Below, piece by piece: positions 6,040 through 61,000 of a DNA stretch of 64,000 bases. Position numbers and translations under genes: made by a program. Source of the stretch: a virus. The first letter of the stretch is position 1. Each line of letters opens with the position of its first letter. The notes beneath the pieces are model-generated. The model ran no database searches, was not told the DNA's origin, and saw only the letters and a list, made by a program, of their open reading frames with translations. The DNA is taken from positions 21,962 through 85,961 of IMG/VR virus record IMGVR_UViG_3300042883_000668. The stretch is one strand, 5' to 3'.

Positions 6040-6113
6040 GTATGATATAGCTCGTTGTGTATGAGCACCTGATATTAATCAGGAGGTAGTGGGTTCAATT
6101 CCCACTATCATAC
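6040..6113 (+). tRNA. tRNA-like element with non-canonical 6-nt anticodon loop (pseudo-tRNA)
   Basis: acceptor GTATGATA/TATCATAC, D-stem GCTC/GAGC, CCTGA-TATTAA-TCAGG, T-arm GTGGG-TTCAATT-CCCAC; no encoded CCA. Confidence 0.7.
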
Positions 6114-6158
6114 CTTATTTGTATAAATAGTTTATACAATAATTTAAAAATAATAAAA

Positions 6159-26782: not shown

Positions 26783-27251
26783 AGATAAATTTAAAAAAAT
26801 AAAAAGTGTCTACTTTATTACAATGTGTATTTGTAGTGTATTATTAGGTTGGTGTATTGGTAGATTAATTTTTTCAGATTATTCAAAACCTAAACTAATA
26901 CCTAAACCAAGTCCTTGTGCAGATACCGTTAGAATAGAAGGTTTCAGTGAAAACAATTTGATAGAATTTATGATGCTTATTGAAATACAATATCCTGAAA
27001 TTGTATTAGCTCAAGCTAAATTAGAATCTGGTAATTTTACATCTGAAAGATTTAAAAAATATAATGCTTTATTTGGTTTCCAAACATCAGATACAAATAT
27101 TATAAAATATAAATCTTGGAAAGAGTCAGTTATTCATTATAAAGCTTGGCAAATGAAAAGACTTAAAAGTAATGAAAATTATTATGACTTTTTAATTAGA
27201 ATAAAATATGCCTCAGATAGTAATTATATTAACAAATTAAAACAATTTTAA
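26772..27251 (+). CDS. membrane-anchored glucosaminidase/lysozyme-like muralytic enzyme
   Basis: N-terminal TM; VLAQAKLESG, NALFG, YA.D..Y..KL. Confidence 0.75.
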   Translation: MDYRDKFKKIKSVYFITMCICSVLLGWCIGRLIFSDYSKPKLIPKPSPCADTVRIEGFSENNLIEFMMLIEIQYPEIVLAQAKLESGNFTSERFKKYNALFGFQTSDTNIIKYKSWKESVIHYKAWQMKRLKSNENYYDFLIRIKYASDSNYINKLKQF

Positions 27252-43400: not shown

Positions 43401-46400
43401 AAATTTATTTTTAACATACATTAAGTCACCATAATTTAACAAATCTCTTGTTAAATTTTTTAAATTTTCTTCTTTTAATGATGCATATAATTCAATAGAA
43501 TCAAATGATAAACCTATACCTAATTTTTGTGCTAATTCATATACTTCATCAATAGTTAATTTAGGAACTAATATTGTACCACTTTTTGTTTTTTCACCTT
43601 TAGACCAATAACTATCTAATAAAGCACTTACTTTATTTTTACTTACTTGATATACAGCTAAATCTTCATTAAAAGTTCTAATATCACTAGTAGCAAGATT
43701 AGTAGGATCTGTAATATTATCAGCAGTCCATTTTGTTTTAAGATTTAATGCAACATCTTTTCTATTAGGATCTAACATTTTAAATATATAACCTAATTTA
43801 CTTTTTGCATAAGTAACTAATTTATAATTTAAAACTTGTTTATTAAAGTTTGAAGCAAATTGTTGTTTAAAGTTTTTAGCTATTTGAGGATTAGTTATTT
43901 TTTCAATAGCTTCAATTATTTGTTTCATTTCAGTACTATATGGAGCAAGTTCTTTCATTATTTTCATTTGTTCTACAAATGAAGTAGTACCTACTAATGA
44001 AGTTTCTAACTTATAATATAGTTTTTCATATGAATGATATATTGTAAATCCATAAGAATCTATTTGAACAACACCTTGTTTACTAATTACTGGAATATTA
44101 GATAAAAATAATTTAATATCTTGAGTTGCAGATCTAATACCTGAGATTGTAGTTTGCTCTTGGAACCCTTTAGATTCATTACCCTGCATATTATCAATAT
44201 TTTCAGAATCTTTAGTTACATCTTCAGATCCTTCTGTTTCTGCAGTATCTACAAAATCTCCATCAAGGTTAAGTTTTCTAGTCAATTTAATTAATTTTTT
44301 AGCATTTAAAAGCATTCCTTCAAACTTTAAATCTACACCATAAGCAATTTTTAATAATGGACCATTAAGTTCATCATCAGATTTAGCATCTTCAGTTTCC
44401 CAAACAAGTTTATATTGTGCTCTAATTTTAGAAGCAATTTCATTAACTTTTTTCTTTTTAATCTCAGACATAGGTGTACCTTTAGCTAATTCTTTAGAAA
44501 TACCATCTAATAACTGATTAGCAATAGAGTTTGTTCTTTCTAACTCTACAGATAAAGGAATATTTAAATTGTCTGTATTTAAATATCTACTATAAGCTCC
44601 ACCAAAATCTTCTAAGTTAATAGCTTTATTTGCTAACTTAGCATCAATACTACGTTTAGCAAATTTACCTTTAGTTACTTCTTCAAATAATTTAGTAATT
44701 TGATCTTTGTTAGCATTTTTAAATACTCCAAATAAATCTACAATCTTATTAAAGAAATTAATTATTTTTTGACCTAATGAAGGATTAAATACTCCATCAG
44801 CATGTTTACCAAAATCATCAGCTAATCTTTCTTCATAATGTAATTGTGTAAGAATTTCATCAGATAAATTAGCATTGCCTTTACCTTTTCTTAAAAATTG
44901 TAATCTTGCAGCATTAGGTTTATCATACTTTTTAATAGCTTCATTTAATATTGCTCTACGTTCTTCATCAGATAACATATTTCTAAATACACCATGAAAT
45001 GCTTCATGGAATAAAGTTCTATTAGTTGCACCGTTAAATAAGTAAATTAACATGTTGTGAAACATACCATAAGTATCTTTCATATTTTTACCAACTTCTT
45101 CTGCTAACTTAGCATTAGCTATACTAAGACCTGGTAATATTTTATTTAATGCTTTTAAAGAAGCTTGATTAACAGCTTCACCACCTAATTGAGTTTTACT
45201 TTCAGCAAAGTCATCTCCTGTAACATCAATTTTATTAATATCTCTTTTAGGTTTTGCAGGAGTTATTATTTCTTGTTTAGTAGTTTCAGCAGGTTTAACT
45301 TTTAAAGCAGTTAGTTCTGCATCATATTTAGCATTGATTATATTATCAATACCTAAAAAATCTTTACCAAAATCTTTTTCAGCTTCTTTTTTACTTTCAT
45401 TTATTATATCTAAAGCTCTGGCATAAAGTTTTTTCCATTCTTCTAAAGTTAATCCTTTAGTTGTTCCTTCTTTTATTTTATCAGATAGTTTTGAAAACTC
45501 TTGAGCATCTTTATTTAAAATAGGAACTCCTGCATTTTTTTTACCAAACCAAGAATCTGCACCATGTTCTGAATATTTTTTATCAGTAACTCTTTCATCT
45601 CCTACTTTTTCTCCAAGCCATCCATGTTTAGTTTTTGCCACATCAAATCTTAAACCCATACCTTTTGAAAAGGTAATATCACTACCAGAACCTGAATAAA
45701 TAGATTCATTTTTATCTACAATATTAAAAGTTTGTGTAGATTTATTTTCTTCTAATATATCTCCTAAATTATTTTTTATTAAATTAGATATTTTTAAAGC
45801 ATCTTCACTACTTCCAATATAAATAGTTGCTCCATCATTTGCCATACTATTAAAATATGTTCCACCATCATTGTGAGCTTTAAAATATAAGTTATTATCA
45901 TATAAAAACTTAGCAACTTTAACTACTTCTCCTTTTTTAAATTGAATATGAAGTTTCCATCCTTTAGAAGAATTATCAGCATACTTTTTGTTTTTTGAAG
46001 TTTTAGGTGATTGATATAATCCATTTTTTCCATTTTTAAATATTTCATCTATTTTAGCATACTCTTCTTTTTGAGTTTCTAAATCTGTAGTATCAGCTTT
46101 AGCATCTGTAGAAGAAGTTATTTCTGAAAAATATTTACCAGTAGAAATAACTTTATTTTGATCTAGAGCTGCTATTGTTTTATCAATACTAGATTTCCAA
46201 GATTCTAATTTTGTAACATCATCACCTCTTTCTGTAGTTCTTTTTATAAATGTTTCTTTATCTAAAGTAATTATCTTATCAAAGTCTTTAGCATTTTCTC
46301 TTAAAAACATCATATCAGAAACTACAAGCATTTTACCAGTTTTCTTAGCTTCAGCAACAGCTTCTTTCCATACTTGTCTCATAGCTGTCTCAAATGCAGT

Positions 46401-49400
46401 TTCATTTAGGTCATTTCTCCATTCATTTAAACCTTTACTGTTTTGTTTATCTTTAGGTAATCCAAGTAGTTTTGCAACCTTAGGTTTAAAGTCAGTATCA
46501 AAATCTAATACTTTATTTGGATTCTGTTCTCTAAAAGTAGTTTTTCCTAATCCTGGATGCCCCCAAATAATTTTATCTGTAGAAGAAAGTTTTACATCAG
46601 CTTTAGCATCTGTAGTAGGTTTAACTTCTGATACATCAGTAATTAATTTATTATACTTATCATAAATAGGTTTATATATAGCGTATAAAGCATCAGGCAT
46701 ATCACCTTGATTTTCACCGTATGTATCTTTAAATTTAGCTAAATTTATTTTAGCTTTAACAAGATCTGCTTGCTCATCTGCTCTAAGTTTAGCAATCTGT
46801 TTTTCATCTGTAAAAGTTGTAGTTGTCACAACAGGAGAAATATTAGTTGCTGTAGTTGCACTAATAGGTTCTACTTTAATTTCAGGTTTAACATATCCTT
46901 CAGGATTATTAACTTCAATATAAGGTTGTACATAATATTGTCCTGTAGAATCAGTGTATGCGTTAGTTACTAATACATCATTATTTATTAATTTAGAATC
47001 TTCTTCAGATTTACCTAATTCATTAGCTGATAAATTATGTCTAACTTCACTTATTGCTTTTCTAAGTTCATCAATTTTATTACCAGTTAATATATCATTA
47101 AATGTTAATTTAACTACTCCAACTTTTACTGTACCATTTTCTACATGATCTTTATCTTCATAAATTCTTAATGCTTGAAGATTAGTTTTGTAGTTAGTAG
47201 TGTTAGTTGCAAAAATATATTTATTTAATTGTTGTAATGCTTTATTATAATCAATAGTTTTACCATCAACAATAGCACCTTTTAATATTGAAATAATGTT
47301 ATCAATAACTTCTTTAGAATTACTAACTTCACCAATTAACTTAGTATAAACTGGAATAACAAACCAAGTACCATTAGCAGTTTTAACAGCTTGATAAACT
47401 CTACCTTCAGAAAATGAAATATTTTTAAATTGTTCAGCAACTTTAGATTGAGCTTCAGTTAAATTTTTACTAGTTAATCCTACACCATCATCATATAAAA
47501 ATAAAGGTCTACCTTCAATCATATCTTCTGTTCTTTGAGAAACAGGTTGATCTAAAATTGGTAAGTTACCTGCCATTTTAGTTAATAATTTACCATGTCC
47601 TTTAACTAAAATTGTAGTTTTAAGAGTACCTGATGGCTTAGATAAAACATATTCTCTAATAGCCATTAATTCTTTATAGGCAACAATAACATCTAGACCT
47701 GCTTTAGGTCCTGGTTCATTAGTACCTAATCCTAAGAAACCTACAATTTTTCCATTAGCATCAACTAAAGCAATATCTTTACCATTGTGTACATAAGCTA
47801 CTTCAGATCCTTCTATAGCTACTGTTGGACTATTAACATCAATAGATACTTGTATATTAGATTCATCAATAGATACTTCTGCACTAGAAGCTTCCATTAC
47901 ATAACCTAATAATTCTTTTTTAGTATGTCTTGCCCATTTTTTAGTTCCTGATACAAAATCATAAAACTTCATCATTAAAGCATTTGGTTTTTTACTAACA
48001 AATTCTTTATTAGAAGTTTCATTATTTGTATTATTAGATTCTAATACTTCATCAGTATTTAAATTATCATCAAATGAATTAGTAATACCATTAGATAATT
48101 TTTCAATAACTTCATTTTCAGTAACTTCTGTTTTTGTAAAAGTAGCTCTTTTTTTAGCAATAGTATCTAATAACTCAGGAGTCATTTGAGTATCAACATC
48201 AGCATCAATTTGATCTATAATCTTTTTTAATTCATCACCATTTGCAGCATTATTAATAATGTTATTCCAATCAGTTTTAGAAACAGCTTTAGTAGCTTGT
48301 ATAGCTTCCCAATCACTAACAATAGCATCTTCATCAGCTTGTGTAATTTGTCCTGAAGATTTACCTTGTTGAAGAATATTATCAAGTTCTTTTCTATCAG
48401 TTATATCTTTATACCATCTAGTATCTTCTGCTGGAGCATTTTCTTCATCTTCAAATTCTGAAAAATCAGTAACTTTAGTTTCATCAGTATGTGCTTTCTT
48501 AGCTTCTGCAGCATCAGCATTTTCTCTAATAGTATTTTTATTTTTATTATATTTAGAATACCATTCTTGTAAAGATTTATCATCTTTAATTTTTAATAAC
48601 TCTTTATAATTATCAGTTTGTTCTTGTAATAAAGATTCTTTAGCAATAATTTGTTTATTTAAATCTTGTTCAGCAATAGTTAAAGGTTCAATTTTAATAT
48701 CAACTCCTGCTTCTTTTAATTTAGTTTCTTCAGCTTTTTTAATTTCTTCAAGTTGTTTTAATTTTTCTTCATTAGCTTTAAGTCTAAAAGGAATATTAAA
48801 ACTTTCTTTTGTTCCCATTGGATCAAAAGCTTTTAATTTTTCAACTACATCTTTTTGTTTTTCAATTAAGTCATTAATGTTATTGTAGTTTTTTAATTTA
48901 GGATCATTAATAACATTTTGAACATTATTTCTTTTAACTGTTAAATCAGTTAAATCTTTTTGTTCTCTAGCTAACTGTAAAGAGGTATGAAATAAATTAT
49001 CTTTAACTGCTTTTTTAGCTACTTTTTGTTCAGCAGAATCAAACATTAAAAATGCACCTTTTTTCTCAACTTGATTTACTTGAGATTCAACAGTTTGATA
49101 AGTATCAAATGCTTTTTGAACTTTATCTACTTCTTCTTTAGCTTGTTCTTTAGTAAGAATTTCAGTACCATCTTCATTCTTTTTACCTATTAAGTTTTTA
49201 ACACCTTCAAGTAAATGATGAGTAGTTCCATTTTCAAAATGCTTTTGTAATATCTGATCTTTTAATTTAAAATAATTAGCATCAACATTAAATACTCCAT
49301 CATCTTGTAATTCTTTATTTACTTTTCTATAAGTATTTAAATCTTTAGCTACTTTAGTTGTTGTTTGAATACCACCCATTAATGCAGCTAACATTCCACC

Positions 49401-50717
49401 AGATTCTTCTGCTGTTTGAAATTGTTTATCATCAGCATATCTACCAGAACCTCTAACTTCACCAATAGGACTAAAGTTCATTGAAGATAATACATCTTTA
49501 CTATCTGTTAATAAATTTTTAACAAAACCTTTATCTTCATATTCTCCTGAATTTAATGCAAAATCTTCTTGACGTTTACCAAAAGCATATTGTGCACCTT
49601 CTTCAAATTTTTCAGATTCATATACTGCTCCAAACTTAGCAGCTTTAGTTCCAAGTCTAGTATATTTATTATAATCAATTGCTTTATTTACAGCTTTAGA
49701 AAGTTTATTAGCACCAAACAAATTAAGTTTTGGAGAAAATAATAAAGCTTCTCCAACGTCAGTAGTAGCTAACATCATATTTTTATAATATAATTCTTCT
49801 CTACCTTTATTTGCTTGAATAATAATATCATCCATAGCATCTTGAGGAATTTGATCTTTAGTTATTTCTTGACCTGTTTGATTATAAACATTATCAATAT
49901 ACTCTTGAGACAAAGCATCTTCATTTGCAGTAATTTGTCCACCAACTTCACTTTTACTTTCTAAATGTCTACCTAAAGCAATACCACCTATAGCACCAGT
50001 TACAGCAAATACTCCTCCCATCCAATTACTTTTAGAACCTTTAACTCCAGCTTTAGCTAAAGCAGCAGTAGCGGCAGTTGCTCCTGCTTTAGTAGCAAAA
50101 GTAGCTAATAAATTAGGAACAATTAAACTCATACTACTACCAAGCATACTAGGCATAGTATATTCTAGTTTATCAAAAAATCCTGCTTCAGAACCTTGAC
50201 CTTGTACTAATGCTTCATTTAATTTATATTTTTTACTAACATATTCATTATCAATTTCTTTTTGATTAGCTATTTTATCTTCAGTAGCAGATTCAATTTC
50301 TTTAATTTGATTATCATTATCTCTTAATAATTCATTTCTAGCAGGATCATTAGGATTTAATGTTTGTAATAATTTATTATTATTAGCAATTTTTAATTTA
50401 GCTGCAGATATATCATATTCATTTGCTGACTTTTGAGTTTCATCAATACCTTGTCTAAAATTATTTACAGCATCTGTAAATTCTAATTGATATTTAGTTT
50501 CATATTTAGAAGGATCTAAAGTAAATTCTTCATTATTATTTAAATAAACAGGAGCATCCTGCATTGCAAGATTTACATCTTGTTTAGTTAAAGGTTTTTT
50601 ACCATAATTATTAAAAAAATCTACAGTACTTACTGGTTCATTATTTTTAGGTACATCTGTTTTAGGTTGTGTACTATAATTATTAAAAAAATCTACTGCA
50701 TTTTCTGGTTCTGGCAT
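37494..50717 (-). CDS. giant virion-packaged polyvalent protein containing crAss-type RNA polymerase
   Basis: 4407 aa; RIP and GADFDFDK (DxDxD at 40854-40868); HEAFH zincin motif (44994-45008); inserted P-loop and GWKLHI modules. Confidence 0.85.
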   Translation of the reverse strand: MPEPENAVDFFNNYSTQPKTDVPKNNEPVSTVDFFNNYGKKPLTKQDVNLAMQDAPVYLNNNEEFTLDPSKYETKYQLEFTDAVNNFRQGIDETQKSANEYDISAAKLKIANNNKLLQTLNPNDPARNELLRDNDNQIKEIESATEDKIANQKEIDNEYVSKKYKLNEALVQGQGSEAGFFDKLEYTMPSMLGSSMSLIVPNLLATFATKAGATAATAALAKAGVKGSKSNWMGGVFAVTGAIGGIALGRHLESKSEVGGQITANEDALSQEYIDNVYNQTGQEITKDQIPQDAMDDIIIQANKGREELYYKNMMLATTDVGEALLFSPKLNLFGANKLSKAVNKAIDYNKYTRLGTKAAKFGAVYESEKFEEGAQYAFGKRQEDFALNSGEYEDKGFVKNLLTDSKDVLSSMNFSPIGEVRGSGRYADDKQFQTAEESGGMLAALMGGIQTTTKVAKDLNTYRKVNKELQDDGVFNVDANYFKLKDQILQKHFENGTTHHLLEGVKNLIGKKNEDGTEILTKEQAKEEVDKVQKAFDTYQTVESQVNQVEKKGAFLMFDSAEQKVAKKAVKDNLFHTSLQLAREQKDLTDLTVKRNNVQNVINDPKLKNYNNINDLIEKQKDVVEKLKAFDPMGTKESFNIPFRLKANEEKLKQLEEIKKAEETKLKEAGVDIKIEPLTIAEQDLNKQIIAKESLLQEQTDNYKELLKIKDDKSLQEWYSKYNKNKNTIRENADAAEAKKAHTDETKVTDFSEFEDEENAPAEDTRWYKDITDRKELDNILQQGKSSGQITQADEDAIVSDWEAIQATKAVSKTDWNNIINNAANGDELKKIIDQIDADVDTQMTPELLDTIAKKRATFTKTEVTENEVIEKLSNGITNSFDDNLNTDEVLESNNTNNETSNKEFVSKKPNALMMKFYDFVSGTKKWARHTKKELLGYVMEASSAEVSIDESNIQVSIDVNSPTVAIEGSEVAYVHNGKDIALVDANGKIVGFLGLGTNEPGPKAGLDVIVAYKELMAIREYVLSKPSGTLKTTILVKGHGKLLTKMAGNLPILDQPVSQRTEDMIEGRPLFLYDDGVGLTSKNLTEAQSKVAEQFKNISFSEGRVYQAVKTANGTWFVIPVYTKLIGEVSNSKEVIDNIISILKGAIVDGKTIDYNKALQQLNKYIFATNTTNYKTNLQALRIYEDKDHVENGTVKVGVVKLTFNDILTGNKIDELRKAISEVRHNLSANELGKSEEDSKLINNDVLVTNAYTDSTGQYYVQPYIEVNNPEGYVKPEIKVEPISATTATNISPVVTTTTFTDEKQIAKLRADEQADLVKAKINLAKFKDTYGENQGDMPDALYAIYKPIYDKYNKLITDVSEVKPTTDAKADVKLSSTDKIIWGHPGLGKTTFREQNPNKVLDFDTDFKPKVAKLLGLPKDKQNSKGLNEWRNDLNETAFETAMRQVWKEAVAEAKKTGKMLVVSDMMFLRENAKDFDKIITLDKETFIKRTTERGDDVTKLESWKSSIDKTIAALDQNKVISTGKYFSEITSSTDAKADTTDLETQKEEYAKIDEIFKNGKNGLYQSPKTSKNKKYADNSSKGWKLHIQFKKGEVVKVAKFLYDNNLYFKAHNDGGTYFNSMANDGATIYIGSSEDALKISNLIKNNLGDILEENKSTQTFNIVDKNESIYSGSGSDITFSKGMGLRFDVAKTKHGWLGEKVGDERVTDKKYSEHGADSWFGKKNAGVPILNKDAQEFSKLSDKIKEGTTKGLTLEEWKKLYARALDIINESKKEAEKDFGKDFLGIDNIINAKYDAELTALKVKPAETTKQEIITPAKPKRDINKIDVTGDDFAESKTQLGGEAVNQASLKALNKILPGLSIANAKLAEEVGKNMKDTYGMFHNMLIYLFNGATNRTLFHEAFHGVFRNMLSDEERRAILNEAIKKYDKPNAARLQFLRKGKGNANLSDEILTQLHYEERLADDFGKHADGVFNPSLGQKIINFFNKIVDLFGVFKNANKDQITKLFEEVTKGKFAKRSIDAKLANKAINLEDFGGAYSRYLNTDNLNIPLSVELERTNSIANQLLDGISKELAKGTPMSEIKKKKVNEIASKIRAQYKLVWETEDAKSDDELNGPLLKIAYGVDLKFEGMLLNAKKLIKLTRKLNLDGDFVDTAETEGSEDVTKDSENIDNMQGNESKGFQEQTTISGIRSATQDIKLFLSNIPVISKQGVVQIDSYGFTIYHSYEKLYYKLETSLVGTTSFVEQMKIMKELAPYSTEMKQIIEAIEKITNPQIAKNFKQQFASNFNKQVLNYKLVTYAKSKLGYIFKMLDPNRKDVALNLKTKWTADNITDPTNLATSDIRTFNEDLAVYQVSKNKVSALLDSYWSKGEKTKSGTILVPKLTIDEVYELAQKLGIGLSFDSIELYASLKEENLKNLTRDLLNYGDLMYVKNKFTPARNVLNNLIKLEINAQTELFTSSFNNVENSVVYAVQHQSFASKLVKALNSKEIASDNLVKELQRDPMNFNNIILNNKGKLEMFALDGLKMQGDNITGKKFNQIHADDYLAMIINMYDNPTAKDNKLELEVGVYAPIIPAEKGLSFGFTGIKISVNKIDNKIPADSQIVKEFQQLFFNELARIRQVMIDIKTLPTDKLINNVHLGKKLGLQFNLPNAITPKLKAKLDAFLQTTLDQTIAKGINPSEYLRGMLSNVSDEKIAKLMEEINTSIMVNLESIEQSHIALALESDVIQIKEGKLVSDKLSTDNVEKLIREWALNSTLFNVSQSLLINGDPAFYKGAEDNGKRFYQGFSMLKFADTTTIDDSYKYLKGGKMKINVIADVKESTRSTQDLADIAKDNNLPKVQELAEAHYNQREEDGKIVNPLNATDAQLFVSVGVYAELKRLFGVSSQELTEGFSNADLADALNNVPKSQQGILDIIKPFFYGVQWNEEYQRYVPIQVKCSIFPLSNKYVANNPLLAEHKALMDADENYPQVIAFESSMKAMLPNRVKIENIGETSIVELDLNNFGEQVANPDHMLDSSNSSLRQMKMLMYGMVQEKDANGKDLMYGDKTGRQIKDEIAMLDKANIEEALGKVVSAFEGNNKEFNEFIQNAITSRNSTSIIEAVFEQKPDGTFSYPLDLINSKATIQLISSVFSKRVVRQEFKGGAAVQVSSVGLQIAPKQSDYKTAKAFQEAVEASPELSKLQTSLNWVRKGEVDPKTGKVSSIDFIEAYAPAHAREFINPDGSFKDNIPDELKQMLIYRIPYEGAHSSMVIRVVGFLPAEYKGAMLLPYEVTQQFGADFDFDKIYFIVKDFVMSKDGKFKIFKYIDGTSEQNVLDRYKALINHVLKNDKNARDLVKQANKEIEEFDYTLDYNDKIQVLLDNNIIPFPEDFAKLSVADQNIKPARDNKILDNYMQILRSVNMLESLITPSGPGAIADVYENVEESEDHGNYFTPGHQVYLKDLFHKISMLKGVSALQVTGHAWATEGNLEIKPITIKENGESIVIERGVKVFSKNEEGKNETQIKKNLSKVISDSGNKIVEELSSMMAVILDAVKSPNQLPSIGISMKTLPIWSYLVRLGFGSRTASQFTSQQAIKDLSAALENNDKQLKSKDFVKQDVNTVRAEYIQKYQEAYDALYAENKFNEGNSINSRKIVEYLEKNDSEKIGKYNTLSLKDLEKYSTLNPEELAKKKLKQPYKSLSQQNEELTGTDKLNYLKSQIVALNVFKDSEDVIKELGELNQLFSINKETGPNFEDVNSKKASKESLIKDDTAISGIGQLLNSDAIKPYIDTIDAQFEIMAKHYNFASPFFNNIKDELAKMQYGNRSNLTRIPAEDREVINGFIQMFLDAEETFDNIYTDENRIPEEDFINDLKVLLSKKISTSYKYKIFGDKVLTAKAQEQLKSTALLQSLEVVSIKNSNQNYVALKGNRYELAQKEMMIDELVRLYNSKYKEFAVRLIEQAFKDTGFFSGLHAYSGLIHPSILQDMGLIEARAKIREMVKSESTNKGRMARIIDQLVRNNAKKFTRVYDNNQKLFTEIEEGKTIIVDMNSKDSRLKTELNRPGEDNKHPMYIRYTLNDTFTPIYKLDVEATEESGQITYRQVSYLGSPAKKIEINPNSDEVKTKFPNNEYEKFVDKDKTKTTNGRSEADLAAEFLSDDELTSVPETSEVETNSDSENITDGQAEIKPEGSILSAQDLADEWGDEEFEEETTESTTSVESKELTQEEADWLANNIKLITRTYKVFSIHDAIDTELKNPIIIGETKVTNIDPDVSEKPYIIFERSSGRWMVKIEEKKGNLFTRLYKWADYNKKGEFSFYVSEDSSANDKANIEKAGLNPLIQQLYTDTNIKDPGTRLGQFEAANALQQKYNIKRTFKDIINELKNNISPSQEKSVSSTIINPEITQNKPDGLPGIDRSPESCS
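46092..46615. repeat. 20-bp direct repeat ATCAGCTTTAGCATCTGTAG (46092-46111 and 46596-46615) encoding TDAKAD
   Basis: exact match, 504 nt (168 codons) apart. Confidence 0.85.
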
Positions 50718-50777: not shown

Positions 50778-52550
50778 TTATTCAAAAGACATTCCAGCAC
50801 CTGTATCACCACTTGTATTATAATAATTACTCATAAGTTCTGAATTTGTTATTTTATTATTTCTAGCTCTAGATGCTGCAGAAAATGATCCTGCATCACT
50901 TAAACCAATTGTTAAATCACCACTTTTTAATTTATATTCTTTTTTAATTCTTTCACCTTCTTCTCTAATTGCATTAGGAGAATTAGCAAAGTTTATGTAT
51001 CTAGTTTCACCTTTATATTTAAATATAAATATAACTGCTTGACCACTAGTTTTGTTATAATCATTTGGATCTTTAGCTATTGAAATAGGTATAGTAGCAT
51101 CACCTGTTTTTTTATCTGTCCAATAAGTATGACCTTCAAAATTACGATCTCTTGTCATTGTATTAAAGTTAATATCATCAAACTTTGTTTGTCTAATTAA
51201 AAACTTTTTAGAATTAGCAGAAACATCTTTTTTAGGAACTACTTTTAAATAATTACCATCTTTACGTTCTTCTAATACTCCAACATATTCTTCTGGTTTT
51301 TGATTTTTATAAAAGTTTTTAGTATTAGAATGTTGAAATCCTGTTATTGGATCTTCATCTAAAAAATGCATTAAAGTTCCTTTACCTGGAACTTCAGTTT
51401 TATTATTTCTATTTCTTCTTGTTGAATAAGTATTAATTTTTATAGGATCTGAATTACTAGCAGAATATCTAAATTTTAAATAAGGTGTTGAACTACTTGG
51501 ATTTAAATCTTCATATTTTTTAGTAACTAATTCTTTTTCTTTATTTTTAGTAGCTCTTTCTAAATAACTTTCAAATTTAGGTACATCATAAGGTGTTTTA
51601 ATTACTTCATCTGTAGCTCCTAATTTATTTAAAGCCGTACTTGTAAACATTCCATTTTCAGGTAAATTAGTATTTAAAAAATTATCTATAAAACCAGCTT
51701 CTTTTGCTTTATCAGTATTAATATTATCTATTAATTTTTTTCTAGTATTTAATAATGTAGAATATTTTTCAACTATTTTTTTATTTCCTTTATTTGCAGG
51801 ATTAGTTGCTTCATAATAAGCTTGTTGTAAAGCTTCATCTGTTTTTTTAACTAAATCACTGTTTGATATAGGTTTACCACTTTCTGTTTTTGAAATATTA
51901 TTTTCAATAAGTTTTTTAGTAATTTCTTTATTAGGAACTTTAATAACTGTTTTAGGTTTAACTTCTACTTTAGGTTCTACTTTAGTTTCTACTTTAGTTT
52001 CTACTTTAGGTTTAACTTCTAAATTAGGTTTAACAACATTATTTTGATTTGGTGTAGTTGCAGAAGTACTTGTTGATTGTAATGTAGAACTAGGTTCTTT
52101 ATTTAAATCTCTTAATACTGTAGGATCTTCTGTTTTTAAATGAGCTTTTGTAAAAGCATGATCAGGATCAACACCTACTTCAAGAAGTTTTGATTTAATA
52201 TCTCCTAATGTTGAAGTATTAGATATTACTGTAGAACTACCTGCAGATTTTAAATCAGTATTTAATCTTTCAATCATATGTTGAGTATATGATGCAGGAT
52301 TATTTTGATCTTCTTTAGGTGCAAATTTATGAATATATGCTTCTATTGTAGTTTCAGGTTTTACCCAACTTGAACCTCCATTAAGTTTTAAATGTATATC
52401 GTGATAAATATCATTATACGCATCTATAGGATTATCAAACCTTTTAATAGGATTAATAGACTTACCGTTAACTACAACTTTTTTTGTTAAATCTCTAATA
52501 CCACCAGTGTATTTTACTTCTTTAGGGGAGTTGCTGGTGTTTGTGACCAA
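50778..52550 (-). CDS. C-terminal extension of 54709 ORF reached by -1 frameshift; N-terminal lysozyme-like domain
   Basis: only a TTG start buried in a GC-rich structure; TTIEAYIHKFAP..DQNNPASY motif; KVETKVEPKV linker. Confidence 0.7.
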   Translation of the reverse strand: MVTNTSNSPKEVKYTGGIRDLTKKVVVNGKSINPIKRFDNPIDAYNDIYHDIHLKLNGGSSWVKPETTIEAYIHKFAPKEDQNNPASYTQHMIERLNTDLKSAGSSTVISNTSTLGDIKSKLLEVGVDPDHAFTKAHLKTEDPTVLRDLNKEPSSTLQSTSTSATTPNQNNVVKPNLEVKPKVETKVETKVEPKVEVKPKTVIKVPNKEITKKLIENNISKTESGKPISNSDLVKKTDEALQQAYYEATNPANKGNKKIVEKYSTLLNTRKKLIDNINTDKAKEAGFIDNFLNTNLPENGMFTSTALNKLGATDEVIKTPYDVPKFESYLERATKNKEKELVTKKYEDLNPSSSTPYLKFRYSASNSDPIKINTYSTRRNRNNKTEVPGKGTLMHFLDEDPITGFQHSNTKNFYKNQKPEEYVGVLEERKDGNYLKVVPKKDVSANSKKFLIRQTKFDDINFNTMTRDRNFEGHTYWTDKKTGDATIPISIAKDPNDYNKTSGQAVIFIFKYKGETRYINFANSPNAIREEGERIKKEYKLKSGDLTIGLSDAGSFSAASRARNNKITNSELMSNYYNTSGDTGAGMSFE

Positions 52551-52568
52551 CCCCCCTGGCTCTTTCCC
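52503..52568 (-). other. programmed -1 ribosomal frameshift signal: G_GGA_AAG + H-type pseudoknot
   Basis: slippery heptamer in correct frame; S1 GGGGGGUUG/CAACUCCCC, S2 CACCAG/CUGGUG. Confidence 0.85.
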
Positions 52569-54709
52569 ACAGTTGCAGGTGGTTGAGCAACTACTCCGTT
52601 ATTTTTATATTTTTTTAATATTTCTTCAGGACCATCTAAATCTAAAGCATTTTTAAAACCAACCCAAGTTTCTTTTGTTGCTTTTGGATTACTTTTTAAT
52701 TCATTTATCATATTAAATAATTCACCTTTAATATCAGCATCTATATTTCGATCAGATGATATATCAGCTACTATATTATTTTTAAAAGTTGTAGGGTTTG
52801 AAGTATATGATTGACCAAAAACTTTATTTCTTCTTTCCATCATTCCTTTACCTAATAAATCATTATAAGATTCAGCAAAATATTCTGATTTTTTAGAAGC
52901 AACTGTAGGTGTATAAAAAGAACTATTGTAATTTTGATTTACAATTTGAGATACTTGAATAGGTTTTTTAATTGGTATTTTAAATTGTTCTATACCATCT
53001 CTTGTTGCAGTATAAGGTTGTATCATACCATTTCCTCCACTAGATTCTAAAAATAATTCTTGCCATTCATCTACCCATGGTGATCCAGTCCAATCTTCTT
53101 CATTACCATATTTTCCATTTTTTACTAATTCTGAATTTATTTGATCTTTAGTCATAATAATATAACCATCTAAAAATGCTTTATCTCCAACATTAGTTTT
53201 GTTATTACCATCTTTTAAGATAAAAGGATAATCTCCTGAAATTTTAAACATTTGTCCCATATCCTCAGCCTCTTTAACTGTTTTAACATTTAATGTTTTT
53301 AAATAATTATCTTTAAATTTAGGATCAGAAATATCTACACCATTTTCTTTAGCTTCTTCTGCAAGTAATTTAAAATTATCTGTAGTTTTTAAATAAGATT
53401 CTTTCATTGTTTCTACAGGTACATTTACAGTTTTAATTGTATTTTTACCATTAACTATTGTAGGACTTGTAACATAAATTTGATTTCCTACAATTTGATA
53501 AGTACTCTTAGGATCTTTTGCTTTTAATTTTTCTAAGAATGTTTCATTATTTTCTATACCTGTAGTCTTTTTAAGATTATTTAATTCGTTACCATAGGTT
53601 ACAACATTGTTAGCTTGAGGATTATCTGGAGTTACTTTAGCAAAGTTAACAATTGCTCCTTGACCATCTGTATTATCTAAAGTAACCATGTGACTTCCTG
53701 GAACATCATCAGGACCTTTAGCCCATCCTAAATGATCTAATTGAGGAGCTGCAACTTGAGCAGTTTTAGCATCAACTAATAATGCATATTGATTTACAAC
53801 ACCATCTTCATCATCACCTGTACCACCTGTTCTAGTTCTACCTGATGCATCTTTTGGTAATGCTGTTACTTTATCAGCTCCTAATTTTTGAATTTCTTTT
53901 TCATTATAATATTCACCTAAAAATGCATTAGCTGTAGCATCTAATTCTTGTTCAGGTGTCCAATCAAGTCCTTGTTTTGCAAATCTTGCTTTATCATACA
54001 TATAAGATTGAGTATTTAAAGCATTAGGATCTTGTTTAATATAATTAGCCATTACGTTTTTAACCTGAGCTCTTCTTAATCCTTCTGCTTCTACACCTTC
54101 TTGTAAAGTTTGAGTATGTTCTTTACCCATTTCATCAATCCAAGTTTTAGTAACAGGTTGTTCATAAATTCTAGAAATAACAGGTTTTATTTGAGCATAT
54201 AAAGGTTTTCTTTCTGCGTTTCTATCACCTGGTGCTACTACATTGTAATAACTTTCATCAAATGGTTGATCAACACCTAATTGTTTAACATTACCTTTTT
54301 CATCAGAATAATTTTGTATAACATAAGGATGATTAGGATCTGTTCTTTGTTTATTAACATCTTTAGTTATCGCAATATCTCTTTGTATACCTTGATATAA
54401 AGGATCATTTTGAACAGCACTAGCTATTTCTTTAACATCTTGAGTTAATCTACCATAGTTACCTGTTTGTTCAGCTCTAGTTTGAGCTTCTGCTAACATA
54501 GCATTTTTTTTAGCATTTAAAGCTTTAGCATGTTCTTGAGTAGCTAGTCCACCTTGAATATCAGTTTTCCACTTTGCTGCTTCAGCATCAGCAGTATCAT
54601 GTTCAAGTTTTACTTGTTCACCCATTTTGGTTATTGTATCAAAAGGTAGTGGTACATGCTGTGGAGTATACTCACTGGTACCTGTTGTACTAAATCTATT
54701 TATTCCCAT
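52514..54709 (-). CDS. virion (probably ejected) protein
   Basis: 731 aa; crAss-like position upstream of the RNAP gene. Confidence 0.7.
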   Translation of the reverse strand: MGINRFSTTGTSEYTPQHVPLPFDTITKMGEQVKLEHDTADAEAAKWKTDIQGGLATQEHAKALNAKKNAMLAEAQTRAEQTGNYGRLTQDVKEIASAVQNDPLYQGIQRDIAITKDVNKQRTDPNHPYVIQNYSDEKGNVKQLGVDQPFDESYYNVVAPGDRNAERKPLYAQIKPVISRIYEQPVTKTWIDEMGKEHTQTLQEGVEAEGLRRAQVKNVMANYIKQDPNALNTQSYMYDKARFAKQGLDWTPEQELDATANAFLGEYYNEKEIQKLGADKVTALPKDASGRTRTGGTGDDEDGVVNQYALLVDAKTAQVAAPQLDHLGWAKGPDDVPGSHMVTLDNTDGQGAIVNFAKVTPDNPQANNVVTYGNELNNLKKTTGIENNETFLEKLKAKDPKSTYQIVGNQIYVTSPTIVNGKNTIKTVNVPVETMKESYLKTTDNFKLLAEEAKENGVDISDPKFKDNYLKTLNVKTVKEAEDMGQMFKISGDYPFILKDGNNKTNVGDKAFLDGYIIMTKDQINSELVKNGKYGNEEDWTGSPWVDEWQELFLESSGGNGMIQPYTATRDGIEQFKIPIKKPIQVSQIVNQNYNSSFYTPTVASKKSEYFAESYNDLLGKGMMERRNKVFGQSYTSNPTTFKNNIVADISSDRNIDADIKGELFNMINELKSNPKATKETWVGFKNALDLDGPEEILKKYKNNGVVAQPPATVGKSQGGWSQTPATPLKK

Positions 54710-54733: not shown

Positions 54734-57700
54734 TTAAACTATTGCTTCTCCTGAATTATTTTGAGTACTAAAATTATCAATATATTTTCTAAATCCTGGT
54801 TCATTTTGGTATCTCCATTGGAACATCTTTAAAGTATCTTGATCCATATTATCTTGTCTACCTGATTTAGTCATCTTACCAAATGATTCACCCCCTTTGT
54901 GTATAGCTTGACTTCTAACATTTTCTAAAGCAGCAGCATTAGCAGCTCTAGCAACAGCTTGATCTTTCTTTATACCAGTATTAAATTGATTAGTTTGATT
55001 AGCAATTTGAGCATTAGCATTATCATATGTTTCACGAAGTCTACCAATTCTACTAGCAGTACCTGCTTTATTAGCACCTAATAAATTCATAGCTGCTCCT
55101 GCATTACCACCAACTAATCCTGGTATTGCTTTTCTAGTTTGTCTACCAATATAATTTTCACCTGCTATTGCTTGTGTAGGATCTAAGTATTTTGCAGTCA
55201 TTAAATCATAAGTTTCTAAAGGTTCATTCTTTCTAGTTAAATCATAAATATTACCTGCATTTTGTCCTAAGAAATTAGCACCCTGCATTGCTAATTTACC
55301 CCAATCAAAGTTTTTAGAATTAGGATTCATTTGAGTAAATGAATTATCTGGTATTCTAGCCATACTTTCATTTTCTCTTTTTCTTGATTCTTCTTTAGAA
55401 TACCAATCTGGCCCTAATGCATTAGTATAATCAGTTTCATATTTTGGTACAGGTACACCAGGAACAACAACACCTTCTCCTTCATCTGTCATTGCAGATA
55501 CATTAGGATTACTATATCCAGGATTTTTATTTCCTGTCATTTGATTAAAAGCTAAATTTCTTTGATTTTGTTCTTGGTTAAAAGCTCTTGATCTTTCAAA
55601 GTTAAAATTAGTAGGTAAATTACCATCACCTAATTTATATTTAGGCATTTGGCCACCGTATTTAAATGACATTCCACTTTCTTTAGTGTAAGCATCCATT
55701 TGTTCTTTCATAGTTCCTTTACCTACTTCATATGTAAATTTAGGAATTGCTTCTTTTTGAATTCTAAATGTTCCACTTCCTCCTTCTAAACCACCAACTT
55801 TATTAACAAGATTTACATTTTTTTCATCTATATTTCTATGTTTTTTAGGATCATATTTTTGAAAATATTTACTTACATTTTCATTACTTGTTCCTTCACT
55901 AACAGGAAGTATTTTTTCATTATATGTTTTAGCATCTACAACATATTGTTGACCACCATAAGTAATAGGCATAAATGTATTTTCTTTAGCTTTAGTTTTA
56001 CTTACACTAGAGAAAAAAGGATACCTAAACTGAGTTGTTTTACTTCCTAAGATTCTATCAACTGGTACATTTGGATCTCCTTGATTATAATACTTTTGAA
56101 CTTCTTCTATATCACCTAAACTAACAGATCTTTGTTTATCTGATAAACCTTTGTTATAATCTGAAATAGCTAAATTTGTATAATCATTAGCTAACTTTGT
56201 ATTTCCAGCTTTATTGCCAACAAAATTTTCTCCTGTAGGTAATTTATAAGTACTTAAAAATTTTTGAAAATCATTCCATTTACCAGTATCTATATTTGGA
56301 TTTTGAATAAGGTAATCTGGATTATTATAAACTTCAAATTTTGTATCTTTGTTTTTCATACTAGCTTCATCATATCCAGTTTTTCCATAAGAAGGTATAT
56401 CACTTACTTTTAAAGTACCATTTACAGGTGTTGTTCCATTAGAAGCAGTAGTTAGTGGATCTTCAGGCATATTACCACCATCATCATACATAGGTATACT
56501 ACCTTTAAAGTTATTGTAAGGATTAGTCATTGCAGGATAACCACCACCCATTGCATACATTGGATTACCTGCATTATCAGTATTATAAAAAGGTAGTTGT
56601 ACTCCACCCATTGCCATATAATTCATCATACCACCATATCTTGCCATTGGCATTTCACCTTGAAGTTGTTCAGGCATACCTTGAGATTGCATTTGTTGAT
56701 TATCCATTGGAGGTTGAGGTAACTCTCCTCTATTTATTGCTTTACGTTGTTCTTTATTAGCAATAATTGCATTTTGAATATCGTTAGCTTTATTTTTTAA
56801 TTCAGCAAAACCTTGTAATTTTTTATCAAAAACTAATGATAATAAATCACTACTATTTTTAGAATATCTATCTCCTTTTTCAGCTTTCTTTAAAATATTA
56901 TCTTTTAACTTTGTAATACTGTTTTCATCTTTAGTTAATTTTTGCATATACTCTGAAAAAGTTTCTCCTTTTTTATTAGCCATAAAAGAAGGTACTTTTG
57001 TTTTACCATTAACAATAGAACCTTGTTCCATTTTTATAGGTATACCTGTAGAACCATCAGGATTTACTTCATCGTGAGTAGAACCTTTTGTTTTATAAGT
57101 AGGTGTACCATATGGATTATTAGAAGCTAATTCAACTCCACCATTAGCAAATACTTGAGGAGGTGTATTTGAAGTAATCATTTCATTATCTTCAACTTCA
57201 GAATTAGGTTGTATATTCATACCACCCATTGCAAATCTCATTTGTCCACCATATTTCATTGCTAAAGGAGGTGTACCACTTGGTAAGTTACCCATAAAAC
57301 CAGCACCCATTCCTCCTGAACCTCCACCCATAAAACTATTAAGCATACCACCCATTTGACCATTCATATTTCCTTGATTCATATATTGATTATATTTACC
57401 TAAACCTTGTCCAAAACTAGAAGCATTAAAATTACCTGCTTGAGTTTGCATTCCAGAAGTCATAGGCGATCCTGCTTGACCATAAGCCATAGCACCAATT
57501 TGTCCTGCTGTATTTAAAGCCATACCTGCACCTTGAGCCCAATCTTTACTTTCATTACCTTTACTTATACCTGCACCTAATCCTTTACCAGTTTGACTAA
57601 TAGCTGCACCTGTAGCACCAGGATTAATAATAGCTCCACCAATTGCTCCAGCAGCATTACTAAATCCTCTAATAGAATCTTGTTCTCTCATTTCATCTTG

Positions 57701-57934
57701 AGTAGAATTACCTGCTTTTTGTAAAGCATAATATCCTTGATCAGTAAGTTGATCAGTAGCTCCCATAGTAACTGTATCTAACAATCCTTCTCCTACACCA
57801 TAAGCTGCAGTACCTGCTTGTTTTCCAACTTTCTTCATTTTTTTCTTATCATCCGCATCTGGAGTAAAGATAGTTTTTTCAAATCCTCCAAATTTATATT
57901 TAGGAGTATAAGGTATTTTTTTAGATTTCTTCAT
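54734..57934 (-). CDS. Gly/Met/Gln-rich virion (ejection) protein with repeated [YFM]xxGG motifs
   Basis: Gly-rich amphipathic N-terminal part; start re-assigned to MKKSKK because a promoter lies at 57964-57995. Confidence 0.65.
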   Translation of the reverse strand: MKKSKKIPYTPKYKFGGFEKTIFTPDADDKKKMKKVGKQAGTAAYGVGEGLLDTVTMGATDQLTDQGYYALQKAGNSTQDEMREQDSIRGFSNAAGAIGGAIINPGATGAAISQTGKGLGAGISKGNESKDWAQGAGMALNTAGQIGAMAYGQAGSPMTSGMQTQAGNFNASSFGQGLGKYNQYMNQGNMNGQMGGMLNSFMGGGSGGMGAGFMGNLPSGTPPLAMKYGGQMRFAMGGMNIQPNSEVEDNEMITSNTPPQVFANGGVELASNNPYGTPTYKTKGSTHDEVNPDGSTGIPIKMEQGSIVNGKTKVPSFMANKKGETFSEYMQKLTKDENSITKLKDNILKKAEKGDRYSKNSSDLLSLVFDKKLQGFAELKNKANDIQNAIIANKEQRKAINRGELPQPPMDNQQMQSQGMPEQLQGEMPMARYGGMMNYMAMGGVQLPFYNTDNAGNPMYAMGGGYPAMTNPYNNFKGSIPMYDDGGNMPEDPLTTASNGTTPVNGTLKVSDIPSYGKTGYDEASMKNKDTKFEVYNNPDYLIQNPNIDTGKWNDFQKFLSTYKLPTGENFVGNKAGNTKLANDYTNLAISDYNKGLSDKQRSVSLGDIEEVQKYYNQGDPNVPVDRILGSKTTQFRYPFFSSVSKTKAKENTFMPITYGGQQYVVDAKTYNEKILPVSEGTSNENVSKYFQKYDPKKHRNIDEKNVNLVNKVGGLEGGSGTFRIQKEAIPKFTYEVGKGTMKEQMDAYTKESGMSFKYGGQMPKYKLGDGNLPTNFNFERSRAFNQEQNQRNLAFNQMTGNKNPGYSNPNVSAMTDEGEGVVVPGVPVPKYETDYTNALGPDWYSKEESRKRENESMARIPDNSFTQMNPNSKNFDWGKLAMQGANFLGQNAGNIYDLTRKNEPLETYDLMTAKYLDPTQAIAGENYIGRQTRKAIPGLVGGNAGAAMNLLGANKAGTASRIGRLRETYDNANAQIANQTNQFNTGIKKDQAVARAANAAALENVRSQAIHKGGESFGKMTKSGRQDNMDQDTLKMFQWRYQNEPGFRKYIDNFSTQNNSGEAIV

Positions 57935-57963
57935 GGTATAACTAATTAAGTTATTGTTATTAT

Positions 57964-57995
57964 ATAATATAAGGTATTTAAATGGTATATGCAAA
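57964..57995 (-). promoter_or_regulatory. Bacteroidota-type promoter
   Basis: TTTG-N20-TATATTAT. Confidence 0.5.
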
Positions 57996-58063: not shown

Positions 58064-61000
58064 TTATCTATCAGATATTCTGAATAATGTTTTAATATTG
58101 TGTATTACAAATCTAAGACCTAGTAAGTTATTGTAACTCAAGTCTATAGTCATCCACTTATCTCTCATTCTTTCTCCAAAAGTTGTTTTAGTTAACTTAG
58201 CAGGATCAAAGATAGATACTGTTGAAGGACTAGTTGTATCATAGTCAAATTTATTTCTAGGTACTTGTACATTAAATTGTTGTTCAACTTTTCTTAAGTT
58301 AGTTCCATAAGTTAAATCAACCCAATCAGTATTTTGATATTCATTATAAAATCTAACTTTGTCAAAAGTAGTATTTTTAATATTTACATTATCAGGATAA
58401 GCAGGTTGAGTAATTGAACCAGGATATAAATTTAAATCATCTGACCACTCAATGTTATCATTTACAGTTTCAGATAACCAAACTAAGTTATCAAATACTT
58501 TAGTATACAAAGGTTGTTCATTAACTATTAATTTTAATAAACTAGGGCTAGGTGCTTGATTATAAAATACTCCATAAGTTCCATAATTATGTAAATACAC
58601 TTTAGAATTATCTATATCATTATCTACTGACCATAAAAATCTATTATTGTTTATATAGATATTAGGACTAAATGAATACATTGATACAAATGCATCTTGA
58701 AACTCTGAATAAGAAATTGTAAGATTTTCATTACTTTTTAAATCTGGAAGTCCAAATTTACCAAAAGAATTATTTTTAAATGTATATAAAAATTCATTAT
58801 TTTGATAATCATAAGTTACAAGTAAACCTTTACCTATAATAGGATTATCATTATCTATTAATGCTTCATGTAATCTTTTGTATAAAAATCCTCTTTGTCC
58901 TTTTAAATCAGAAACAGGATTTACTGCTTCACCATTAAATAATAAAATTTTCTTTTGTCTAATGTCAATATAAGTAATTGCAGATTGAGATCTGTATACT
59001 GACCATTGATGTCTAGAACCAGAATCAATACTTTTGTAATAATGCTTTTGAATAGTAGTACCTATACCTAAACTTAATGGAAATCCTTGTGCATCTCCAG
59101 TTAATGCAGATACTGGATTAATCATTAACACACCAATACCTTTTTCTTGAATATAATACAAGTTTTGATTTAAAGCTATTAATGAAGTTATTCCACCATA
59201 GTTACCTTCTACATCATAGAATTGTGTAATAGGATATACTGACCAAGAATCTTCTACTTCATTATCAATTTTTACATTTGAGTAATAAACTCTACTTCTC
59301 CATTCATCATTAATTACAAAGTTAAATGGTTTAGGAAAAAATGTAGTTACATTCTTTTCATTAGAATTATAAGATTGATAACCAAATTCATCAAATTGAT
59401 TATAAGTATTAGATAATAAAAATTTATCAGCATGATATGTAAATCTAACTGCTTGATTGTTAGAATTTTTACAAGGAAAATAAAATACATTACCTATGTT
59501 AAATTTAACATTAGTTGTAGTACCACTAGGGCTTCCAGGATTACCTGAACCACTAGGAACCCATTGATATATTTTAATAGGTGTACCATTTTTACTTGTA
59601 TCATCAAAAAAATTAATATTTTTACTTACTTTTTGATGATCCCAATAATTAATATGTACATCACCACCATAACATTTAAAATTAATATTTTTATTGTTAA
59701 CTAATATTTGTTGATTTCTATTTAAAGGTACAAAACTACCACAAGCTATATATTCATTTGCACTTCTTGCAGAATAATTATTTCCACCATATTGTAAATT
59801 ATTAGGTCTATAATATAAACCCATTAATTTTTCACCATTATAAACCTGATAATCTCTTGGCCAAATTCCATTAGGATTTTCAAAAGTTAAAAGTGTTGTT
59901 TGAGAACCTATACCTGGAACTGAATCATCAGTATCACCATATGTAAATAAACTATTTTTAAAATTTAAACTACCTAAAACACCAGGAACATCTTGTGCAG
60001 GACTAACTATTTGTCCAGATTTAATTGGTTTATTAAAACCATAAGAAAGTGGATCTGGTAAAGGAACTTGATCTTCTACATAAAATAATAAATAAAAAGG
60101 CATTTCTTCAGAATCAAATCCTGTAGTATATCTACCTGTTCCACTATCAAATCCAGGAACATCATAACTAGGTTCTGTTGCTCTAGTAACAGTATTAGTT
60201 AACCATTGATTTAAATTATCAAATCCTAATCTATATCTAGGATTAGGTAATGCATTATGAGCATTTTCATAATTAATAGGTTTTACACTAGATCTAATTA
60301 ACATTTTATCTCCAGTTTTATAACTATAACTACCAGTCATAAAATCAAAACAATCATATGTTAAAATTAATTTAGATGCATCATCAAAATTAGCAAAACC
60401 AATATCTGGATTTAATGTTTCTAAACTTTGTTGTGCTGGATATGGGTGATAAGGTTTTCCTATAACTCCATAAGGAATAACAGGAAATATCCAAGGAAAA
60501 AAATCATCTTGTAAAAACATACCACCACCTAATACAGCATTTACTTTACTAGATTCTTCTACAAATGTATTAGTTAACATTCCTGTACCTAAGATAGTTT
60601 TATTTTCATCAGTTCTTTCAACTCTAACTATTTGATAACCACTTATGTATTCAGCAATAGCACTAACATCTACTGTAAATTTAATATATAATGTTTGTCC
60701 CCATATTCTACCTCCATGTAAAAATGAATTTCTAAAATCAACAATGTTTTCAAGAACTGATTGAGGACCTCTATTAATAGTATTTGAATCAGATGCAGTA
60801 GGCATTTTAATATCACCAATCCACTCTGTAAAATATGGAGCACCTTGTAAATCAAAAAATTGAATACCAAATCTATAAATTTCTTCATGTTGATAATCTT
60901 TCATTACTGAAGTAAAGTATGGATTTTTAGTTGTACCAACTCCTTCAATAGGATATACTTGATCATCTGAATCAGTAGAACCTAATATTAAATCTTGTGG

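Follow-up and report, generated by a model that had tools for sequence, protein, structure and literature searches.

Programmed ribosomal frameshifts of phages are textbook examples for tail chaperones and capsid proteins. The lambda G/GT site is not known to need a strong downstream structure; in the T7/T3 gene pair 10A/10B a -1 slip places a short C-terminal extension on a minority of the copies of a podovirus-type capsid protein; and in the bacterial gene dnaX the frameshift shortens the protein and has an upstream Shine-Dalgarno-like (SD-like) stimulator. Here we consider a 64-kb stretch of viral DNA (hereafter the window) from the IMG/VR record IMGVR_UViG_3300042883_000668 (85,961 bp in total, 96% complete according to CheckV), where two minus-strand open reading frames (ORFs) of 731 and 590 aa overlap by 37 nt in the virion module of a crass-like phage. 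We argue that the two ORFs are very probably joined by a programmed -1 ribosomal frameshift at the slippery heptamer G_GGA_AAG.

The site differs from T7/T3 10A/10B, as the extension here is of about 594 residues and two domains and belongs to a non-capsid protein, and a conserved hairpin or pseudoknot sets it apart from lambda G/GT. The heptamer itself is that of lambda G/GT (PMC3296357, Table 1) and is described as 'highly shift-prone' in E. coli (PMC5009743). By the same account, the lambda slip also occurs near the end of the upstream gene and yields a short major product and a long minor virion-related fusion. The lambda pair, however, is flanked by the tail tube and tape-measure genes in long-tailed phages and has a role in assembly, whereas the present pair occupies the interval between a muzzle gene and a giant gene; the two pairs share the heptamer and no other sequence, and by this measure ours is not a tail-chaperone pair. 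Slippage on tRNA-Lys at X_XXA_AAG-type sites that are followed within a few nucleotides by a stable stem is likewise known from E. coli dnaX and from the IS3 family (reviewed in PMC5009743).

In the literature searched, the nearest published parallel for recoding among internal or ejected virion proteins is that of genes 39/40 of Alteromonas virus vB_AspP-H4/4, where a -1 shift was predicted for overlapping endolysin and internal-virion-protein genes (PMC5658483). This phage belongs to the T7 supergroup, the case is a prediction without comparative or structural analysis, and we liken it to the present one by description. In ΦcrAss001, the cargo proteins gp45 (C1) and gp46 (C2), of 842 and 534 aa, were found in virions by mass spectrometry (PMC10172136), and their genes likewise have the muzzle gene gp44 on one side and the RNA-polymerase-associated giant gp47 on the other. 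There, unlike in the phage considered here, gp46 has its own ATG, a ATGGCTAA overlap and the +1 frame, with no slippery heptamer; in phage phi14:2 the genes at this position are also separate. The accessible text of the literature searched describes no crassvirus frameshift. A preliminary description of the locus had been made from the letters of the window, and its author was aware of none described for this crAss-like gene.

The slippery heptamer in the window and in its relatives

The 731-aa ORF (P0001; 52514-54709, minus strand, as are all features of this locus; ATG start) ends in the zero frame as GTG GGA AAG AGC CAG GGG GGT TGG ... AAG AAG TAA, so that the heptamer (52562-52568) is in frame as X_XXY_YYZ, with the zero-frame codons GTG GGA AAG, and the stop UAA is at 52514-52516. 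The -1 frame opens 10 codons before the heptamer, is closed before that, and reads GKEPGGLVTNTSNSPKEVKYTGG... into the 590-aa ORF (P0002; 50778-52550, TTG start); after the slip it would comprise GK, EPGG and then P0002 with its stop (50778-52568). The predicted products are the 731-aa protein and a protein of 716 + 4 + 590 = 1310 aa. All this had been anticipated in the preliminary description, which identified the heptamer with that of lambda G/GT, led the -1 frame through GK-EPGG directly into the 590-aa ORF and put the products at 731 and about 1310 aa; the codons and the translation confirm it, and the computed sizes are 731 and 1310 aa. The mere presence of the heptamer is not significant, as GGGAAAG occurs once on both strands of the window against 3.3 expected, and at least once in 99 of 100 shuffles; its frame, place and conservation are significant.

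Junction DNA of relatives was collected by scans of viral contigs with P0002, P0001, A2 and A4, where A4 is a profile of 36 P0001 homologues and A2, together with A3, is an alignment of the N-terminal domain of the extension (the N-domain). These scans gave four usable new loci besides two relatives, and one metagenome scan gave six loci; a scan of genome contigs with the A4 profile yielded no junction locus. L003 together with L001, L004, L010 and L017 represents one phage with a junction identical to that of the window, and the further groups are L002 with L005 and L018; L006; L007 with L015; L011; L012; L013; and L014. There are, in total, eight distinct junctions (the window, denoted WIN, L002, L006, L007, L011, L012, L013 and L014), which form four sequence classes.

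In all eight junctions we observed an in-frame G_GGA_AAR 15-23 codons before the stop of an ORF of more than 700 aa (G_GGA_AAA in L011, G_GGA_AAG elsewhere), and in all eight the -1 frame opens 1-10 codons before the heptamer and runs into an ORF with the N-domain, homologous to P0002. The 30 nt upstream of the heptamer are unrelated between the classes, and inspection by eye revealed no SD-like motif consistent across the eight junctions. The codons composing the heptamer are rare in these genomes of about 25% GC: G occupies the third position in 3-9% of codons of the junction ORFs, AAG accounts for 4-22% of Lys codons, and the codon preceding the heptamer (GTG, GAG, TTG or TCG) for 0-6% of its synonymous set. 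Given the amino acids, the probability of the heptamer does not exceed 0.003 in each junction. Conservation in relatives had been proposed as a check together with the original observation, and the heptamer is kept in 8/8 junction DNAs.

Conservation is also visible in proteins. The 36 homologues of P0001 are 710-815 aa long and 29-83% identical; with the query included, 36 of the 37 proteins end in GK followed by 13-15 residues, with the consensus GKSQGGWSQTPATPLKK, while the residues before GK vary freely. The sole homologue without the GK tail is P0186 (815 aa). In the window, the 15-residue tail past the slip site is SQGGWSQTPATPLKK (52517-52561), and the pattern [G/E]W..[T/S]P..PL is kept as protein even where the nucleotide stems described below differ. 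As the zero-frame tail overlaps both the stem and the -1 frame, three constraints are entangled here, and the tail may also serve some function by itself in the short form.

If gene decay, or an indel introduced into the G6 run by assembly or sequencing, had split one ORF in two, this layout would be an artefact. Homopolymer runs are indeed error-prone and the two ORFs abut. However, eight junction DNAs of different samples share the layout, half of the classes lack the G6 run, and 36 of 37 proteins stop at the same place. Two other contigs from lake runs, X6 (831 nt) and X8 (9126 nt), span positions 52250-52850 and are independent of the record; they have 15 and 26 substitutions, respectively, and one 3-nt deletion at 52578, with no differences or indels in the 86 nt from 52486 to 52571, which hold the heptamer and both stems (S1 and S2), flanked by six substitutions in 52461-52485 and four in 52572-52598. 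The preliminary description had named an indel in the G6 run as a possible refutation; neither contig has one, the error is ruled out so far as sequence data can do so, and we assign to this explanation a negligible probability. Transcriptional slippage was considered separately and rejected: the conserved site is only G3A3, and the G6 run is missing in half of the classes.

RNA structure downstream of the heptamer

In the window, the heptamer is followed by the 5-nt spacer AGCCA (52557-52561) and a hairpin, S1, with the 5' arm GGGGGGUUG (52548-52556, including the TTG at 52550-52548 called as the start of the 590-aa ORF) and the 3' arm CAACUCCCC (52525-52533). S1 comprises 9 bp, one of them G-U; A52557-U52524 is an optional tenth pair, which would reduce the spacer to 4 nt. 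The 3' end of the 14-nt S1 loop, CACCAG (52534-52539), is complementary to CUGGUG (52502-52507), which is part of the codons that specify YTGG, a conserved motif in the -1 frame; this second stem, S2, has a duplex energy of -9.8 kcal/mol. The resulting pseudoknot would have loops of 8 nt (L1) and 17 nt (L3, 52508-52524), the latter containing the zero-frame UAA. The stems, loops and spacer are all exactly as first described.

A similar arrangement was found in each of the eight junctions, with a spacer of 4-6 nt, S1 of 7-10 bp closing a loop of 13-18 nt, S2 of 4-6 bp, loop 3 of 9-22 nt, and the zero-frame stop 2-8 nt past S1 (26 nt in L012). In L002 the spacer is altered (UCACA) and the stems are unchanged. 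The arms of S1 exist in four unrelated versions: besides the version of the window class, these are AGAGG(AA)UGG / CCA(AA)CCUCU in L006, with ACUCC / GGAGU as S2; GAGUGGAG / CUCCACUC in L007, with CCCC / GGGG; and GCAGUGGA / UCCACUGC in L013, with GACCC / GGGUC. Judging by the comparison of sequences, the S1 helix is rebuilt between the classes, not kept pair by pair. The covariance model of the window class recovers the L006 junction with E = 8e-6, and no Rfam frameshift element matched at E up to 1.

In an energy control of our own design, the best hairpin starting 3-8 nt downstream and the best duplex between its loop and the downstream sequence were scored together at the eight sites and, for control, at 8210 positions elsewhere in these loci. 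All eight fall into the lowest 0.02-0.4% of controls (the window site, into the lowest 0.02%), and the Fisher combination over the four classes is 2e-9. For S2 alone, compared to random 34-mers of the same locus, the fractions are 0.016-0.063 per junction, and the four classes combine to 6.5e-4. The 81-nt segment is a GC island (38%) within a region of 22-30% GC.

We consider the S1 hairpin established and S2, hence the H-type pseudoknot, probable. The frameshift could also be stimulated by S1 alone, with S2 arising by chance from Gly and Thr/Pro codons; such a mode would be a sub-variant of the frameshift explanation. Bacterial sites such as dnaX work with a hairpin, and the present data leave some space for such a mode, since no S2 is more than moderately unusual, those of L011 and L012 contain a mismatch, and foreign loops pair with the downstream sequences of these two equally well. 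On the other hand, a GC-rich complement of 4-6 bp is present in each of the four classes in an AT-rich background, with the combined p-value given above. Between WIN and L006, the pairing changes from ACC/GGU to UCC/GGA at the matching codons (by eye), and the YTSG codons of L013 and L014 are unable to pair, the S2 partner having moved upstream there (GACCC/GGGUC). Stimulation by the hairpin alone seems to us rather unlikely. As for the pseudoknot in the preliminary description, its first stem stands, and its conservation holds insofar as a stem 4-6 nt downstream and a loop pairing are present in 8/8 junctions; the second stem has moderate support, weakened by the mismatches in L011 and L012.

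One more in-frame slippery pattern, caG_GGG_GGU, is seen inside the 5' arm of S1 in the window class (52550-52556, minus strand). It is absent from L012, L006, L007, L013 and L014 and is probably incidental.

The start of the second ORF, a natural fusion and the proposed slip

Alternatively, translation of the 590-aa ORF could begin independently at the TTG (52550-52548), with GTG or ATG in this role in relatives; there would then be two separate proteins and a heptamer without function. An NTG codon is indeed found at the same place, 5-6 codons past the heptamer, in all eight junctions (TTG in four, GTG in three and ATG in L006), the gene callers list the 590-aa ORF as a free protein, and ΦcrAss001 expresses the two genes at this position separately. 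However, this NTG (xTG) consists of the first two letters of a conserved Trp codon in the zero-frame tail and the base before them, and may simply result from that codon: three of the four bases before the TG give a 'start', which is near chance for four classes. It also lies inside the 5' arm of a GC-rich stem and has no properly spaced SD-like motif. Thus, the earlier statement that the 590-aa ORF has no convincing start is borne out, as its only candidate is an NTG inside the stem, though this is an ATG in L006.

Two further observations argue against independent starts. An exhaustive search with P0002 gave 158 matches at E <= 0.001, and among the best 150 of these, on which all statements about the matches are based, six full-size representatives of the N-domain begin inside the domain as called, in our reading because gene callers find no usable upstream start. 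Moreover, a naturally fused form exists in one distant lineage. In P0037 (839 aa), residues 7-464 are similar to P0001 (31% identity, E = 4e-52) and residues 707-836 are the N-domain, in one frame. P0037 is encoded on an 89,113-bp contig, and an identical protein on an 18,696-bp contig of another assembly, the two samples being perhaps not independent. Its size matches the predicted frameshift products of L006, L011 and L012, where the extension consists of the N-domain alone (142-153 codons).

If expression of the two ORFs were coupled without fusion, ribosomes would terminate at the UAA, move back by about 33 nt and restart at the NTG. The 37-nt overlap would suit such a termination-reinitiation mode, as would the promoter-like sites being at the chance level (26 vs 25.3 expected). 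However, S1 would sequester the restart codon again once the ribosome had passed, and the naturally fused protein, encoded in a single frame, speaks for covalent linkage as the functional state. Both alternatives are disfavoured mainly because neither explains the heptamer: independent initiation leaves the rare-codon G_GGA_AAR in every junction and the fixed distance from GK to the stop in 36 of 37 proteins without explanation, and reinitiation gives the heptamer no role. We therefore regard independent initiation as improbable, and reinitiation as still less probable by about half.

Several points weigh against the frameshift or limit its support. Its support is comparative and comes, at the DNA level, from only four independent sequence classes. 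The minimum free energy of the hairpin is ordinary when compared to dinucleotide shuffles of the same 81 nt (z = -0.33). The support for S2 in individual junctions is weak, as seen above from the fractions, the mismatches in L011 and L012 and the foreign loops that pair there as well as the cognate ones. The covariance model of the window class matches L007, L013 and L014 weakly (E = 0.29-3.3), and in the MAFFT alignment A5 the stems of these three are in a register other than that of the window, without pair-by-pair homology. Conservation extends to the protein sequence of the zero-frame tail (GK..[G/E]W..[T/S]P..PL), and dual coding may account for a part of the nucleotide conservation. The NTG in every junction may leave room for some independent initiation. 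Finally, the shiftiness of A_AAG depends on the tRNA-Lys set of the host.

With these reservations, the programmed -1 frameshift would proceed as follows. A ribosome reaches G_GGA_AAG with tRNA-Gly on GGA and tRNA-Lys on AAG, and is met 4-5 nt downstream by the GC-rich hairpin of 9-10 bp, probably extended to an H-type pseudoknot by the 6-bp loop pairing, which would resist unwinding. In a fraction of ribosomes both tRNAs would re-pair one base back, on GGG and AAA; these ribosomes would then read GAG CCA GGG GGG UUG... and produce the 1310-aa protein (residues 1-716 followed by the 594-residue extension). The unslipped ribosomes would read 15 more codons, stop at the UAA in loop 3 and produce the 731-aa protein. 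The slippage itself and the status of the long form as the minor one are what we infer from this scheme. The preliminary description had assumed a fixed minority of copies with a putative wall-degrading extension; the fusion by frameshifting is strongly supported by the comparison, the minority share has the standing just given, and the wall-degrading label found no support in the searches detailed in the next section.

The extension, its gene neighbourhood and the meaning of the cassette

The extension is evidently a genuine conserved coding sequence. It includes the N-domain (residues ~13-150 of P0002; 52101-52514; alignments A2 and A3) and a C-terminal domain, the C-domain (residues ~233-588; 50787-51854). 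The N-domain is carried by 22 of the best 150 of the 158 P0002 matches and is recognized by the motifs YTGGIR, FDNP.DAYND, SSWVKP, KFAPKED.NDP.SY and EDP. In metagenomes, dozens of giant proteins (1290-4556 aa) that have nothing else in common carry the C-domain at their extreme C-terminus; among the best 150 matches, none of these giants has P0001-like or N-domain sequence. The C-domain does not recur in other large proteins of the window, and it could act in targeting or as an enzyme, as a module common to phage cargo proteins.

Neither domain matched anything in sequence searches against Pfam, PHROGs, NCBIfam and PDB, the last searched by profile and by single sequence; in the Pfam search of the 22 N-domain members the only match was Peptidase_M23 in one protein, P0030, outside the N-domain. 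In the ESM Atlas the N-domain has sub-threshold leads (0.76 to Phage_lysozyme2 and to Glucosaminidase); its model is poor (pLDDT 0.46), and of its named structural neighbours a Glucosaminidase cluster comes closest (TM 0.34). For the C-domain the Atlas gave nothing usable. PF18013 and PF01832 did not match in the frameshift-extension region of the genome. Thus, the 'lysozyme-like motif' ascribed earlier to the start of the extension finds no backing in the sequence databases, the Atlas leads being below the threshold.

A Glucosaminidase (PF01832) match is present elsewhere in the window, on the plus strand at 26991-27251 (ORF 26772-27251; E = 1.3e-14), and is the sole such match in the genome. 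This gene probably encodes the phage lysis enzyme, separate from the extension.

Distant versions of the N-domain were seen on two more viral contigs. In L009 (800-4195), a version with NNPGN / YAP..D.N..Y ends a 1131-aa ORF, for which no Pfam family was matched; hence the domain family reaches beyond the frameshift lineage. L008 (IMGVR_UViG_3300025896_002550, ~3800-4200) has almost no long ORFs under table 11, and within its NNPGN-type distant relative of the N-domain the frame is broken by TGA alone, which suggests a TGA-recoded phage. For the window, an alternative genetic code was rejected, as all large ORFs are open under table 11.

In relatives, the extension comes as the N-domain alone, as the N-domain with the C-domain, or as an M23 peptidase followed by both. 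The extension of L003 is 925 aa long. In L007 (3539-5671) the extension starts with Peptidase_M23 (P0030, E = 1.6e-29), followed by the N-domain; there, the frameshift would attach a cell-wall peptidase. P0186, the homologue without the GK tail, runs in frame into a C-terminus with sub-threshold matches to the M15 clan (the best, Peptidase_M15_3, E = 6.4e-4, 20.3 bits against the cut-off of 23.2). No fused P0001 form longer than 1281 aa was found, which by the rating of that search itself is weak evidence. Our best guess is that the extension is a payload on a fixed share of the copies.

The 731/590-aa pair lies between a crassvirus muzzle gene (58064-62803, minus strand; PF25731, E = 2.6e-122) and a giant gene encoding 4407 aa (37494-50717, minus strand), with a 1086-aa ORF (54734-57994, minus strand) intervening on the muzzle side. 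No Pfam or PHROGs family matched P0001, and no Pfam family matched the 4407-aa protein. The region, P0001 and P0002 had no match in 50,697 phage records (blastn, tblastn); of the proteins compared to the deposited phages, the muzzle protein alone retrieves crassviruses, at 21-29% identity. The stretch was found in lake-water and freshwater metagenome runs (24 rows, 23 studies), three of which may be its source. Besides protein genes, ARAGORN reports a tRNA-like gene of undetermined identity with the two-letter anticodon 'tt' at 6041-6114 (plus strand).

From this position between the muzzle and the giant genes, we infer that both the short and the long forms are virion or cargo proteins. The role of an 'ejection protein', proposed initially for the 731-aa product, has the gene position in its favour, and homology lends it no support: the A4 profile had no match at E up to 1 in the ΦcrAss001 genome, gp45 included, and gp46 showed no detectable homology to P0002 or P0001 (hhalign probability 0.2 against the A4 profile; BLASTP E = 2.7 against P0002).

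Taken together, these data give good support to a conserved cassette for canonical -1 frameshifting whose gene context is new: the internal-virion-protein block of a crass-like phage. The cassette is compact, consisting of the heptamer, the hairpin and the probable pseudoknot. Gene callers split the long form in two, or start its second part inside the first domain; therefore the annotation misstates what this lineage, with at least 37 clusters at 90% identity, produces. Two widespread domains with no known family are thereby flagged as probable payload or targeting modules. More tentatively, and with the odds rather against it, the frameshift could be a conserved 'payload adaptor' of an environmental crass-like lineage, by which a fixed share of the portal- or tail-lodged cargo copies would carry interchangeable modules into the host, and the C-domain could signal capsid loading or exit. 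If the long form is present in the virion, the slip would set the ratio of plain to extended copies, and the cassette would matter for the way in which the unusually large protein cargo of crassviruses is loaded and ejected.

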